From the NCBI GenBank assembly GCA_965279515.1, contig CBDIID010000003.1, forward strand, positions 1,216,001-1,280,000: a DNA stretch of 64,000 nucleotides, read 5' to 3'. Source of the DNA: Turneriella sp. (GTDB taxonomy: Bacteria; Spirochaetota; Leptospiria; Turneriellales; Turneriellaceae). This document shows positions 1-5,269 of this stretch, one piece after another. Position numbers and translations under genes: made by a program. The stretch's first letter is position 1; the number at the start of each line of letters is the position of its first letter. The notes under the pieces were generated by a model. It was not told the DNA's origin. It ran no database searches and worked only from the letters and a program-made list of their open reading frames with translations.

Positions 1-2363
1 CATTGCATGACTGCCGGATTGCCCTCAAGGACTTTTAACACGATGTCCTTTCGCTGCTCGACCAGAATAAAGAGCCGCAGCGGATCATGAATTTCGATCA
101 TCTGCTCGGGCAGCCCGGTGCGCAGATCACCCTCCGCCCCGTTGCCGACGCCAAGCAGCGAAAAAACATTATGCGGTAATTTGGACCCCGCGCCAAAAAC
201 CGAATTGTCCATGCGCGAGAATAGGTACTCGAGATTGATACCCGCACACACCGGCACGAGCGGCGTCAGAATTCCGTTCAGAATCTTTCCGTCTTTATCG
301 GTCCGGGGATCGTAGGAATTAAAAAAGGCGCGGCGATCCAGAAAAAGATTTTCAGAGAGTGAGCGACGGGCGACAATCGCCAACGCATTCGTCGCATGGT
401 TATACTCCGGCCTCGGTTCGAAGAGCATCTCGGTGCGTAGGCGTACTTCCTTCATGGCCTTTTTGAAACCATAGGGAAAATTCAGAATGGCAAATCGGCG
501 TGTCCGTTCATGTGCGTTATGTTCCAGCGCGCTGTTGAATATCGCATTCAGCTCTTTCAGCTGATCTGAATGGTGTGCCATGACATCGTCTTCGTCCATG
601 AAAATAATCTCGTCGCGGGCCGTATCGTGGATCGCACCGATAAAGCGCGTAGAAAGGGGAATATCGATGCCCTCGGCTTTGAGTAGCCGTCGTACATCGT
701 CGCGGTTAGCCATCGTCGCGTACGTGCGTGCGTTGACGAACCCTGGTCTTCCTGAGCAGGCGCCGCAATCGTATGCGGCGAAGTATGGATTGTTTGTACT
801 ACTCGACCCATGGCCGACAACCGCGACCAACGCCGCAAAATTGTGGGTTAAGCCGATTTGGCGTAAAACCCGCGCCACGCGTTCCGCCATTTCGCTGACG
901 GTATAACCCTCGAAGTAACCGTCCTGCGGTGCCTCCCCATCTGGCCTCTCGTAGTGCAGATCGGTTTCATCATCATGTGCGGCAAACGAACTCGCCGTAG
1001 CAAATGTGCGCGAGGGTTTTGCAATCGATATTCCGAGTCTGACGAGGGAAAAAAGACCGAAAACGAGAGATATCAGCCAGCCTAAAACCAGGTTATTCGC
1101 ATAACGATGCCAGAAATTCATCTCAATGCGGCTGGCGGGTAATTTTCTCTTATGCTTCGCTATGCCGCGGATACGGTGACGGGGTGTAACCGGCACCGGA
1201 CACTGCTTGATTGAAATGGCGTCATAGGGTCCCTGATAGACGGCATCTATGGCAAAGAAGCCGGGTGTCGCAAACGTTTCCACGCCATCCGTAAGTTCTT
1301 CGAGATAACGCCGGAAAGAAGACTCCCTGTCATCGATGCAGAATAGCGCCTGAAATTTTGTTTTCCCTTCTTTAGAAAACCGTCCGCGCTTCTGACCTGC
1401 GTTTACCCTGATGGCGCGCAGTGTATCGAGATAAAAACTCAATTCCATCGCCTCAAGCCAAAGGCGACAAATCTTCTCACCCTCGTTTTCGACCGGCGCG
1501 TGCTCTGCAAAAAACGCGGTATTGGTATTGACCAGGTCCAGTTTGGATTTCTCCCAACCGCCTGCGGTGGCACGTTCCGTAAAAATCGCCAGATAAAGAG
1601 CGACGTATTGTACAAGTTTGATCAGGCGCGGATAACTCAGGGATTCCGGGCGGTCTTCTACCTGCGCAATAAGCCCCGACCAGCCGCGCGCAGCCATGAG
1701 CACTTCGAGAAGAAAGGTACGCCTGTCCGCTTTTTCTGGTAACAGCTTTTCCAGGCAATCTGCGACAATGTCTTCAGGGGATTTTTTGCGTATCTGGTCA
1801 GTTAAGTGTGCGCTTAAGGCGTGGATTTTCCCCGTGCGCAACTGTTGGCGCAACGCCGACCAGAAGTCGAGTTGACCTTCGCCTAACGAGATTGCCGCCA
1901 TCCCCTGGTCCAGGTAACTGGCGACCAAACGGAAAACATGCGGATGAATTTGTTCCTCAAGAACAATACCGCATTGCTGCTTGATTGAGAACATGTATCC
2001 GTGCCTGCGAAAACCGGGACGGTGTTGTACATCCGCCAGTTCTCTGTAGAGCATCCGGTGGCGCACTTCCGCCGTGTCGCCACCTTCAGAAGCTAAGACT
2101 AAATTCAGCGCCTCATCACTGATCTTGCCGCTTTTAAACAATGCCCGGAATTCGGAAACCGGCAGGTATTCCCGCGCACCGTAGAGGCGCGAGGCCTGGC
2201 GGATGGATTCATCGAAGCTGAGGTTATGTTCCTGGAAGGCATGCAGCGTATTATGGTGGATAAAATCCTTAATCGGTCCCTGTGACGGCAGATAATGGCG
2301 GATTTCCTTTAGAATTGTCGTAATATCCGTTGGTGCTTCCTGCTTTTTTGAATTCTTTTTCAT
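1..2363 (-). CDS. dabA: DUF2309/UPF0753 family putative inorganic carbon transporter subunit DabA (beta-carbonic-anhydrase-like), 3' end runs off window
   Basis: Absent from the ORF track because there is no stop in the window. Manual translation from ATG 2363 (SD GAGGAGG) gives LPSQGPIKDFIHHNTLHAF, FQALFCIDDRESSFRRYLEE, GHGSSSTNNPYFAAYDCGACSG, RPEYNHATNA, FLDRRAFFNSYDP and INLEYLFS...GSKLPHNV...GDLRTGLPEQM, all DUF2309 signatures including the C/D/H/C Zn ligands. Confidence 0.92.
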   Translation of the reverse strand, partial: MKKNSKKQEAPTDITTILKEIRHYLPSQGPIKDFIHHNTLHAFQEHNLSFDESIRQASRLYGAREYLPVSEFRALFKSGKISDEALNLVLASEGGDTAEVRHRMLYRELADVQHRPGFRRHGYMFSIKQQCGIVLEEQIHPHVFRLVASYLDQGMAAISLGEGQLDFWSALRQQLRTGKIHALSAHLTDQIRKKSPEDIVADCLEKLLPEKADRRTFLLEVLMAARGWSGLIAQVEDRPESLSYPRLIKLVQYVALYLAIFTERATAGGWEKSKLDLVNTNTAFFAEHAPVENEGEKICRLWLEAMELSFYLDTLRAIRVNAGQKRGRFSKEGKTKFQALFCIDDRESSFRRYLEELTDGVETFATPGFFAIDAVYQGPYDAISIKQCPVPVTPRHRIRGIAKHKRKLPASRIEMNFWHRYANNLVLGWLISLVFGLFSLVRLGISIAKPSRTFATASSFAAHDDETDLHYERPDGEAPQDGYFEGYTVSEMAERVARVLRQIGLTHNFAALVAVVGHGSSSTNNPYFAAYDCGACSGRPGFVNARTYATMANRDDVRRLLKAEGIDIPLSTRFIGAIHDTARDEIIFMDEDDVMAHHSDQLKELNAIFNSALEHNAHERTRRFAILNFPYGFKKAMKEVRLRTEMLFEPRPEYNHATNALAIVARRSLSENLFLDRRAFFNSYDPRTDKDGKILNGILTPLVPVCAGINLEYLFSRMDNSVFGAGSKLPHNVFSLLGVGNGAEGDLRTGLPEQMIEIHDPLRLFILVEQRKDIVLKVLEGNPAVMQ

Positions 2364-2465
2364 CTTCCTCCTCAGGTACGGAGCTTGGATAATTCTCCGC
2401 CAAAAACAATAATGGGATTAAACGCGCCGGGACAGAGCTCTCATACCGAGCCTGCCGTCGGGTGT

Positions 2466-2855
2466 TTAGAGAGCAGGAGGGGCGCGCGAGTTTGCTAGAG
2501 AAAGGAGGTCTTTTTGGTGGAGAATCAGGGACGATGCCGAAAAATCGTTGCGAATGAAGTGAATTTGGGGTAAATGGACCGCGTCGGCGGTGACATAGAC
2601 ATCTGCATCGGACTCACCGTCGCACTCTTCACCGTTTTCAGCAAAGAGGCCATCGACCTTGGCCAAGTTCTGCGCAGGGGGTTGGGTAGAGAGCATCAGG
2701 GTTGAAGATGCAGAGGTACAATACGCCGAACCTTCGATGCTACCCAAAAAAATGAACGCAGCCAGCACCAACACAAATCGTCTGAGATATTGGCCGTGCT
2801 TTGCCTTGTGAATCATCTCTTTTAACATAGTAGTAAATCGATCCGAATATGGCAA
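2466..2855 (-). CDS. Small exported-type leader protein with C-terminal RAPP motif (candidate translation-arrest peptide); start may be 2828 or 2816
   Basis: Basic n-region, hydrophobic RRFVLVLAAFIFLG, acidic linker, ends SRAPPAL*; co-oriented 102 nt upstream of dabA. Confidence 0.7.
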   Translation of the reverse strand: MPYSDRFTTMLKEMIHKAKHGQYLRRFVLVLAAFIFLGSIEGSAYCTSASSTLMLSTQPPAQNLAKVDGLFAENGEECDGESDADVYVTADAVHLPQIHFIRNDFSASSLILHQKDLLSLANSRAPPAL

Positions 2856-3097
2856 TAAAATCCGCAGGCAAATTTCGTGCCTGAGCTGCTTTCTGGGGTG
2901 GGCGGCAGATCGTTAGCGAACCTGCCCGATGAAAATGGAAAATGCTGAAATCCGGGAAAAGCGGGCATTTGCTCGTTCACGGCGTGATTTTTGCGACTAA
3001 AAATCGTGCAGCTTCTCTTGAGATTTCAGAATTTTGCACACCCTCCGCGCGCCCCTTTTTCCCTTTACCTGTACATGCTGCGCAGAAATCATACGCC

Positions 3098-5269
3098 ATG
3101 TCTTCGCTTGTCCGGTTTGCGTTCCGGTGGATTGCTTATTTTTCATCCTACGGTATAGCGGTGGCGACGTCGGCGGCGATCAGCTCGATACTCGCGATCT
3201 CCTTTGGTCTCTACTACGCCCGTGCGACGAATTTCCCGCTTTCGAATGCCATGCTGATCACCATCGCGATCGGCGCGGCGGTCGCCTGGATCGGCCATTC
3301 GGTGCAATTCGGTATTCTGAATAAAATCGGCTTCCCGGGTTTTACCCGCCCCGTTCTGGCAGTCAATCGTTTCATCACAGCCACCCCCGACCTTTCGATC
3401 AGACCCGATCTCAGGGAATCGGATTACCATGAGCTCTTACGCGCGCTGACGATTATTCCACTCACCAATGCATTTACCGCGGTACTTTCAGTACAGCTGA
3501 TCTTCGGGGCGATTCTCGTCGCCGCAGAGCTCTCGATTAAATTCGAGCCCTACCACTATGTGCAGGGCCTGATCATGGACCTGATGTTTTCTTTTATCCA
3601 TGGCGGCTTCTGCCTGGTGATCGGCGAAATCGCCACAGGGGGCATGCGCGCCGAATGCAAGCGCATCATGCACGAAAAGGGGATCGCCTTCACGGACCGC
3701 GCTGTCACAACAGTGCGGCTGAAACTCGCCTTCTTCATCACACTCTTTCTCGTAACGCTTTACGTCGCCGCAACCCTTGTCTACTACAACCGCGACAATT
3801 TGCAGGCAATCCTCATTTTCACACTCATGGCGACCGTTGCCGCGGTGCTGATGGCCTACATGATCTTCTACCTGATCTACAGTGCGCTCAAAGATATCGA
3901 AGGCGCTATGGACGATTTAAAATCCGGCGGTTCGGGACTTATTTTCACGAAGTCGATCGACAGCGAATTTGTCAAGGTCGCGACCGGAATCTCCGACGCC
4001 GCACGCACAATCAAAGACTACCAGGCAAACCTGGAACAGAAGATCGACGAGCGCACGCGCGAGTTGCAGGAAAGTTTAGGGAATGTAAAGGCCCTGAAGG
4101 GCCAGCAAGACGGCGATTATTTTCTCACCTCGCTGCTGCTGAAGCCGTTAACCGGAAATTACGCCAACAACCGCCAGATCAAAGTCAGTATCTTCATCCG
4201 CCAGAAAAAAAGTTTCGAATTCAAAACGAAAACGAACGAAATCGGCGGCGACATCTGCCTCGCGCACTCGATCAGGCTGCGCGGGCGGGATTACACCCTG
4301 TTCTTAAACGGCGACGCAATGGGCAAATCGATGCAGGGCGCCGGCGGATCGTTGGTTCTGGGCGCCGTCATGCAATCGATTGTCGAGCGCACGAAGCTCT
4401 CGCCCAAAGAACAGGTACTTTATCCCGAGCGCTGGCTGAAGGCGGTGTTTCTCGAACTGCAAAAAACTTTTGAAAGTTTCGACGGTTCGATGTTGATCTC
4501 GGTGATTATGGGTCTTGCCGATGAGAAATCCGGCTTTGTCTATTTTATCAACGCCGAGCACCCCTGGTCTGCAATCTACCGCCAAGGCAAGGCGTTCTTT
4601 ATCGAAAACGACCTGACGCTCAGAAAGCTCGGCACGCTCGGCGTGGCGATGGGCATCCGCGTGCAGACGTATGAGATGAAACCCAACGACACATTCGTTA
4701 TCGGCTCGGACGGTCGCGACGACCTGGTTCTAGGCACCGACGAGACGGGCACCCGCATCATCAACGAAGATGAAAATCTGTTTCTGCGCATGCTTGAATC
4801 GGGCAAAGGCAATCTCGAACAGACCTATAACCTGTGCAAAGAGACAGGGGATATTTCAGACGACTTCTCACTCATCTCGCTTACCTACCTGCCTGAAATA
4901 GAAACACGCGACATGCGCTTCGGCATCGGGCAAAAAATCAGCGAAGCGCGTGCCTTCGTCGCCAAAAAGAATTACGCAGCAGCAACCGAACTTTTGGAGC
5001 ACGCCTACGAGGTTTCGAAGGATAACCTTCACGTCGCACGCGCGCTCGCCCATATCTATTACAGGGCGGGCAAGCTGGCAGAAGCCGCGCGCTATTTCGA
5101 CCTCTATAGCGAAGAGAACCCGGGCGACACACAGACGATCGGGGTATTGGGATCGCTGTTATTGAAGCTGGGTGACACCGAACGCGCGGCCGACGTATTA
5201 ACCCGCCTCAAGATCCGCAACCCGCACGATGAGAAGATCGCCAGCCAGCTGGCGAAAATTTATAAGTAG
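3098..5269 (+). CDS. Membrane-bound PP2C/SpoIIE-family Ser/Thr phosphatase with coiled coil and C-terminal TPRs
   Basis: About 6 TM segments, coiled coil LEQKIDERTREL, PP2C motifs IGGD, NGDAMGK, INAEHP, GSDGRDD, SDDFSL, and a TPR-like tail. ORF is open from 2942; ATG 3098 is preferred. Confidence 0.85.
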   Translation: MSSLVRFAFRWIAYFSSYGIAVATSAAISSILAISFGLYYARATNFPLSNAMLITIAIGAAVAWIGHSVQFGILNKIGFPGFTRPVLAVNRFITATPDLSIRPDLRESDYHELLRALTIIPLTNAFTAVLSVQLIFGAILVAAELSIKFEPYHYVQGLIMDLMFSFIHGGFCLVIGEIATGGMRAECKRIMHEKGIAFTDRAVTTVRLKLAFFITLFLVTLYVAATLVYYNRDNLQAILIFTLMATVAAVLMAYMIFYLIYSALKDIEGAMDDLKSGGSGLIFTKSIDSEFVKVATGISDAARTIKDYQANLEQKIDERTRELQESLGNVKALKGQQDGDYFLTSLLLKPLTGNYANNRQIKVSIFIRQKKSFEFKTKTNEIGGDICLAHSIRLRGRDYTLFLNGDAMGKSMQGAGGSLVLGAVMQSIVERTKLSPKEQVLYPERWLKAVFLELQKTFESFDGSMLISVIMGLADEKSGFVYFINAEHPWSAIYRQGKAFFIENDLTLRKLGTLGVAMGIRVQTYEMKPNDTFVIGSDGRDDLVLGTDETGTRIINEDENLFLRMLESGKGNLEQTYNLCKETGDISDDFSLISLTYLPEIETRDMRFGIGQKISEARAFVAKKNYAAATELLEHAYEVSKDNLHVARALAHIYYRAGKLAEAARYFDLYSEENPGDTQTIGVLGSLLLKLGDTERAADVLTRLKIRNPHDEKIASQLAKIYK

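Follow-up and report, generated by a model that had tools for sequence, protein, structure and literature searches.

Introduction

The closest described systems are the RAPP/RGPP arrest-peptide uORFs (Fujiwara et al. 2025, PMC12992588). As at the locus described here, these encode small proteins with an N-terminal hydrophobic signal and RAPP a few residues from the stop, and a same-strand gene lies just downstream. At least 15 rows of the RAPP list in that study have a downstream SulP gene. Its main text and the part of its supplement covered here contain no DUF2309, DabA or carbon terms, and such rows may exist in the rest. In the same parts, two matters are left open for non-Sec RAPP leaders: the means by which they act on the genes behind them and the source of the pull. 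Shine-Dalgarno (SD) sequences and stem-loops go unmentioned there, and the discussion cautions that RAPP alone is no guarantee of arrest (PMC12992588).

A second group comprises SecM-secA, MifM-yidC2, VemP-secDF2 and uDF_RQH-secDF2 (PMC10987492), in which, as proposed here, arrest of an exported leader relieves an SD-masking stem. Such stems are described for secM and for uDF_RQH, in the latter case by stem mutants (PMC10987492). Unlike the substrates that monitor Sec or YidC (SecM, MifM, VemP, Apd, RQH), the leader studied here precedes a carbon-uptake operon and not export machinery. Because the target differs (dabA, dabB, SulP, porin), we do not regard it as a Sec/YidC monitor. Also unlike SecM-type leaders, the mask is predicted to be a helix that spans a spacer of 60-130 nt and in which the Pro codons themselves often take part, and the three-helix relay predicted at this locus would need a queue of ribosomes.

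The third comparison is CruR (DUF2946) of Bordetella pertussis, likewise a RAPP leader with a C>G bubble at its end that heads a transport operon, with stalling predicted to mean ON (PMC9426467). CruR acts through Rho: the stalled ribosome covers the bubble, which serves as a rut site (PMC9426467). Unlike CruR, our leader has no DUF2946 match (only an atlas neighbour at 0.93) and no CXXC, and carries an acidic patch instead.

By its sequence, the locus family described here is a variant of known arrest-peptide regulation. We hold, with somewhat better than even confidence, that its best-supported output is occlusion of the ribosome-binding site (RBS) by the leader end, which stalled ribosomes would relieve. 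The family would thereby give a comparative answer to the question left open for non-Sec leaders: SD occlusion, either by Pro codons or through a relay, with the stems given exactly. The family further suggests that DAB/SulP carbon uptake is under post-transcriptional control. Our literature search, to which subscription journals were mostly closed, turned up no study in which a leader controls DAB or SulP.

An arrest-type leader heads the dabA operon

The window is a 64,000-nt stretch of a Turneriella sp. genome, and the features discussed below are listed in Table 1. The leader, its motif and the operon are present and linked across the genus. In the genome, dabA is followed by dabB (NuoL-like), SulP/STAS and an Alginate_exp-family porin gene. 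We found dabA in 14 of the 61 genomes searched, and a RAPP/RGPP leader occupied the operon head, upstream of a same-strand gene, in 12 of these 14 (it was not found in G012 or G013).

Table 1. Features of the leader-dabA region, with positions counted in the window
Feature	Position	Strand	Remarks
dabA	1..2363	-	854 aa, continues beyond the window; DabA PF10070, E 2e-202
dabA Shine-Dalgarno AGGAGG	2367..2372	-	
Hairpin 3 (CUCC 2383-2380:GGAG 2371-2368)	2368..2383	-	Covers SD; predicted OFF state; excludes hairpin 2
Hairpin 2 (GCGGAG:CUCCGU)	2378..2400	-	Predicted ON-state anti-anti-SD
16-bp outer stem, 3' arm	2390..2406	-	Holds 5' arm of hairpin 2
Hairpin 1 (RA:GGCGCG, AL:GAGAGC, CCGA:UCGG)	2423..2486	-	Predicted P ~0.9 on free RNA; not conserved
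Leader ORF, 116 aa, end NSRAPPAL*	2466..2816	-	Likely start ATG 2816
C>G bubble, rut-like	2466..2543	-	31 C / 10 G in 78 nt; composition
RAPP codons	2475..2486	-	CCUCCU (2480-2475), the Pro-Pro pair, is the complement of the dabA SD; P-site codon predicted at 2480-2478
Second anti-SD-like heptamer CCUCCUU	2502..2508	-	SD pairing predicted when 2340-2520 is folded, absent from wider folds
16-bp outer stem, 5' arm (leader codons for LILHQK)	2511..2527	-	Locus-specific
Acidic patch E60-D72	2601..2639	-	41-53 residues ahead of P-site proline; sequence
Hydrophobic segment after basic N-terminus, signal-peptide-like	2733..2777	-	KD 2.4 over 15 aa, hydropathy only
-10-like hexamer TACTAT, predicted leader promoter	2827..2832	-	
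-35-like hexamer TTGCCA, predicted leader promoter	2850..2855	-	Similar boxes in homologues

The leader protein matched no Pfam or NCBIfam family (no Pfam match at E 0.1). In an alignment of 12 leaders (20-41% identity), no columns but R, P and P were invariant. A search with this alignment returned 12 proteins, Turneriella-like wherever named, and atlas neighbours of the leader fell in clusters of 107-116 aa at 0.95-0.96, which is a lead only. The motif lies near the C-terminus (RAPPAL*) of a protein well below the 300-aa bound used for RAPP/RGPP uORFs, and an N-terminal localisation signal or membrane segment is indicated by hydropathy. Together with the conserved place upstream of dabA, these features mark the leader, by sequence, as a putative RAPP/RGPP uORF. 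In the leaders of L003, L004, L005 and L105, which form one clade, a second hydrophobic stretch ends 16-25 residues before the Arg and would lie inside the exit tunnel at arrest.

A sigma-70-like promoter (TTGCCA-17-TACTAT) is predicted 10 nt ahead of ATG 2816. At 11 of 15 loci, an in-frame start follows the -10-like box by 7-12 nt, a spacing that was counted without a shuffle control. Because promoter-to-start spacing is short here and at these loci, the leader is likely 116 aa long and its mRNA likely near-leaderless. The upstream start codons TTG 2855 and ATG 2828 were disfavoured because both lie inside the predicted promoter. A single RNA run, of which a small share was covered, gave one 175-nt contig within dabA and is uninformative on leader and dabA expression. 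Farther upstream, the stretch 2939-3037, ahead of a divergent SpoIIE/TPR gene, recurs at three other places in the genome (77-84% identity) and contains a 12-bp hairpin at 2982-3009.

The linkage was also assessed at 160 dabA loci from Methylococcales and other distant groups, using the motifs RAPP and RGPP only and with short flanks at many loci. An upstream ORF ending in RAPP/RGPP was present at 17 loci: 14 were Turneriella-like, one was from Bdellovibrio, and two lay far upstream and were unconnected. In the Bdellovibrio record, the RAPP leader heads sulP-porin-dabA. Among 35 Bdellovibrionota upstream regions, we picked by eye from the motif scan 11 with a small leader at the operon head; 2 of these leaders end in RAPP and 9 in a different PP motif. 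Over 20 family genomes, a degenerate DNA pattern for RAPP-stop stayed at control level, with real leaders at only 5 of 30 loci. Overall, these sequence data suggest that a conserved arrest-type leader very probably regulates the carbon-uptake operon dabA-dabB-sulP-porin.

Several arrangements depart from this gene order. In G008, two other genes separate the leader from dabA (L020:1622-3463): an SPFH gene and a fusion of SulP with a CaMKII_AD/SnoaL domain that ends in HHSS and may be iota-carbonic-anhydrase-like. This different SulP fusion is the first gene after the leader, and its RBS matches the Pro-Pro-Ser codons perfectly over 9 bp. In L021 (G001:C224), two tandem dabA-dabB pairs surround sulP and the porin gene. 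Small acidic leaders ending in DFPPEIA or FIVFRNLRL head the dab loci L100:583-876 (a Saprospirales record) and L182:2533-2892, and their ends suggest convergent arrest motifs. The Turneriella genome also encodes a 351-aa RuBisCO-large-family protein (G000:C3:4570689-4571741; low score, E 4.5e-36), likely a RuBisCO-like form, so that carbon uptake here is probably anaplerotic.

Pairings around the RAPP codons

A preliminary description of 2364-2490 had proposed a secM-secA-like switch, and the pairings it drew on the minus strand are present. CGCGCC (2486-2481) faces GGCGCG (2428-2423), GCUCUC (2474-2469) faces GAGAGC (2442-2437), and an inner stem pairs CCGA (2461-2458) with UCGG (2449-2446), with UUUAAU (2422-2417) following the hairpin. 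The Pro-Pro codons CCUCCU (2480-2475) are complementary to the SD (2372-2367), and a second hairpin (GCGGAG 2400-2395, CUCCGU 2383-2378) ends 5 nt before it. Taken alone, these pairings are only weakly above chance. The fold of 2350-2500 had z +0.33, with 122 of 200 shuffles as good. The 127 nt contain three Watson-Crick helices of at least 6 bp, compared to 1.25 in shuffles, and 13.6% of 2000 shuffles reached three (p 0.14). In windows picked post hoc, z was -1.6 for hairpin 1 by itself and -2.7 for hairpin 2 by itself, and we found no counterpart of hairpin 1 in homologue folds.

The Pro-Pro:SD helix competes with hairpin 1. Its predicted probability was 0.22 in the stretch chosen by the preliminary description and 0.09, 0.007, 0 and 0 in four others. 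The Pro-Pro codons were thus not borne out as the direct mask of this locus's own SD, the helix being unpopulated in full-context folds.

It had also been proposed that a stall prevents termination, with hairpin 1 and UUUAAU as an intrinsic terminator that the stalled ribosome blocks. Hairpin 1 is well populated on free RNA and overlaps the ribosome footprint, and the SulP-CA leader of this genome does have a terminator-like hairpin across its stop. However, a terminator scan returned no match, the internal loops of hairpin 1 are large, only three U follow it, and homologue folds have no U-tract at its position. We consider this reading very improbable. Hairpin 1 was rejected as a terminator since it is not a compact GC stem with a U-tract (tail UUUAAUCCC).

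Leader ends pair preferentially with their own RBS

Because CCN CCN (Pro codons) resembles an anti-SD by nature, we compared the pairing of each leader end with its own and with swapped RBSs. Leader ends paired better with their own RBS than with those of others (p 0.003, 11 loci; p 0.0012-0.0044, 15 loci). The preference held with one locus per clade (median p 0.012-0.018 over 108 picks) and was not significant under within-clade permutation (p 0.12-0.38). When either window was slid, the signal peaked at RAPP..+27 against -24..0. Swapping the RBSs halved the expected base pairs from 6.9 to 3.5. In short context, at least 5 base pairs were expected between RAPP..+27 and the SD zone at 10 of 15 loci, compared to 8 of 75 crude control gene pairs.

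The register of pairing shifts among loci, as in CCUCCCG:CGGGAGG (L015), CUCCCCC:GGGGGAG (L005), CACCCUCCG:CGGAGGGUG (L024) and UCCUUUAAAUU:AAUUUAAAGGA (L013). With 60 or 120 nt more upstream context, the direct helix was kept at 6 and 5 of the 15 loci, respectively; fewer loci keep it in longer context because other C/U-rich leader sequence competes. L011, L104 and L106 show little direct pairing, and the cognate duplex of L001 is only average (-11.3 kcal/mol). When 17 leaders were recoded synonymously, z averaged -1.2, and 4 of them fell on the wrong side.

We assessed ribosome occupancy by covering the leader fully. The drop in RBS-opening cost then exceeded the control 95th percentile at 11 of 15 loci. 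The difference from controls (Mann-Whitney p 3e-7) is overstated, as kin are not independent; for one footprint it was p 0.046. A composition-matched shuffle abolished the cover effect in many loci, this one included.

Outside the Turneriella-type leaders, the cognate signal was absent in 12 Bdellovibrionota leaders (p 0.27) and weak in eight SulP-CA leaders (p 0.048, 0.09 and 0.37; L284 was left out, and L287 and L289 have no leader). A like design is seen in unrelated leaders, with 9 bp ahead of czcA in this genome and 5-7 bp ahead of an RND operon. Among homologues, the spacer could not be aligned, and Rfam over 2000-3300 gave no match beyond a chance snoRNA hit at E=1; for both reasons, no covariance model was built for it and a conserved spacer RNA family was rejected.

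We take these comparisons to reflect selection for RBS occlusion in Turneriella that is real, if loose. We propose that the C-rich last leader codons hold the dabA RBS in a paired state, which ends when these codons are covered by ribosomes, likely stalled at RAPP. In the majority of relatives, the Pro-Pro and next codons would pair straight with the SD, closing a multiloop over a 62-132 nt spacer. By analogy with known families, arrest would occur with the first Pro in the P site, a register taken from PMC10951233, and would be ended by pull on the exported nascent chain. The likeness to secM-secA thus stands for the conserved RAPP leader, for a 3' end that would, by prediction, block the next gene's RBS and for cognate Pro-codon/SD pairing in homologues; it does not reach as far as the switch as drawn at this locus.

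A relay is predicted at this locus

We folded 2335-2560 at equilibrium as free RNA and with ribosomes covering part of it. The preliminary description had missed three elements: a 16-bp outer stem, the hairpin CUCC:GGAG over the SD (hairpin 3), and a second anti-SD, CCUCCUU. In the free ensemble, the outer stem (P 0.99), hairpin 1 (0.9) and hairpin 3 (0.92) were populated and Pro-Pro:SD pairing was absent. The outer stem scored z -3.3 in a post hoc window; it had no covariation support and no counterpart in homologue folds.

One ribosome on 2465-2495 melted hairpin 1 and nothing else. The cost of opening the RBS (-13..+3) dropped by 0.0 kcal/mol and hairpin 3 stayed at 0.92, contrary to the proposal that a single stalled ribosome exposes the SD. 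With cover extended to 2525, the outer stem was gone, hairpin 3 reached 0.14-0.18 and hairpin 2 0.77-0.86; over the disome and queue cases together, hairpin 3 fell from 0.92 to 0.14-0.22 and hairpin 2 rose from 0 to 0.59-0.86. Mean SD unpairing increased modestly (0.25 to 0.33-0.47). The constrained folding that the preliminary description had put forward therefore left SD accessibility unchanged for one footprint and changed it modestly for a queue. With a queue or the leader covered, the opening cost of -13..+3 dropped by 4.3 kcal/mol, which ~1% of the 75 control gene pairs equalled. Over -16..+3, it did not fall even with a queue (8.2-8.8 vs 8.5); this window differs in that it takes in the foot of hairpin 2.

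These predictions suggest that unmasking occurs only when 2511-2525 is also covered, that is, by a disome or queue, and that hairpin 2 is likely the ON helix. In the proposed relay, leader codons 2527-2511 would capture GGCGGAG, and the freed CUCC would fold over the SD. A stalled and a queued ribosome would together release GCGGAG, hairpin 2 would form and the SD would loosen.

Alternatively, the arrest peptide is real and the helices named here reflect chance or drift, with generic coupling, such as ribosome traffic protecting the mRNA, and no defined switch. The unremarkable fold and helix count of the region agree with this, as do hairpin 1 and the outer stem without homologous counterparts, the unalignable spacer and the average duplex of L001. 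The z-score of the outer stem, though post hoc, and the family-wide cognate signal oppose it, and we regard it as unlikely.

Rho-dependent attenuation as an alternative output

The preliminary description's output mechanisms left out of account Rho-dependent attenuation, which the C-rich leader end allows. As in CruR, a C>G bubble lies at the leader end and a rho gene (over cut-off) is present in the genome. A stalled ribosome would hide a rut site in the leader end, Rho would terminate in the spacer upon release, and the SD pairings would be a C-rich by-product. Over the final 78 nt of the leader, C exceeds G by 21, a value reached by 1 of 2394 long-ORF ends in the genome, and 11 of 15 leaders exceed the genome 99th percentile (11). 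Shuffled C-rich leader ends occlude the RBS here as well as the native end does (9.2 vs 9.9; 40% of 25 shuffles reach native), and the mechanism is proven for CruR (PMC9426467). Against this, composition alone gives no cognate-specific pairing across clades, and hairpin 1 would fold part of the bubble. Some of the C excess is due to the RAPP codons; ahead of R, a stretch of 60 nt still holds +12 here, but only 0-5 in L003, L004 and L013. We consider attenuation in place of occlusion, the main rival reading, possible and not probable. The favoured RBS occlusion and Rho attenuation can act together, and both predict that a stall means ON.

The acidic patch and what may be sensed

In all 15 Turneriella-type leaders, the top-scoring acidic window of 10 residues sits 38-56 residues ahead of the P-site proline, compared to 5.0 expected from shuffles, although these sequences are related. 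Of 12 Bdellovibrionota leaders, 8 had the same spacing (3.9 expected, p 0.019). A filter for hydrophobicity and acidity passed 27 small ORFs ending in PP in this genome, and among them the two carbon loci hold the two strongest patches. The membrane potential pulls on an Asp5 segment, with the maximum at ~50 residues (bioRxiv 10.1101/310698), and CCCP affects DAB uptake (10.1101/476713), which is sensitive to it; PMC10880623 gives background on DAC and SulP.

The most speculative step of our proposal is that the membrane potential pulls on the acidic patch, so that a weak potential or acid would prolong the stall and increase carbon uptake. The leaders would then be nascent-chain voltmeters. 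A patch ~41-56 residues back, pulled through SecY by the membrane potential, would set the dwell at RAPP/xPPP; the Pro codons would double as anti-SD, and both carbon loci would be tuned to potential or pH without a transcription factor. We put this forward tentatively, as an idea that could well be wrong. If true, one 6-nt word would serve as stall signal and RNA switch, and the patch would put to natural use a force for which descriptions to date come from engineered reporters.

Acidic-patch RAPP leaders also head an RND efflux operon (L276:1168-1521 in G001, L262:1501-1857 in G003), with Pro codons that pair with the SD in predicted folds. The patch is therefore not specific to carbon uptake. 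One query for the operon of the acidic RND leader did not find it in this genome. Judged by eye, nine SecD leaders had no marked patch and CzcA leaders were His-rich. Metal binding or simple translocon monitoring may be alternatives to voltage sensing.

Other candidate arrest leaders in this genome

The second carbon locus, G000:C3:817887-820481 (L282), encodes a SulP-beta-carbonic anhydrase fusion behind a leader with a hydrophobic start. This leader has a net-7 acidic patch 43 residues before TPPP, and a terminator-like hairpin overlaps its stop. Leaders of this type were found at 9 of 11 orthologous loci.

A His-rich RAPP leader (G000:C3, stop 1598110 on the minus strand; L019:4111-4638) precedes a CusA/CzcA-type RND gene, a class among those enriched in the RAPP supplement of PMC12992588, as far as covered. 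Its 9-bp Pro-Pro-Val:SD helix gave the largest predicted switch that we observed (drop 12-15 kcal/mol). Three Cys/His-rich small leaders ending in PPP (G000:C3 1976745, 1980174 and 1982326; L283) share a single 8-kb locus, where they precede genes for membrane proteins and lipoproteins; they are possibly metal or haem sensors.
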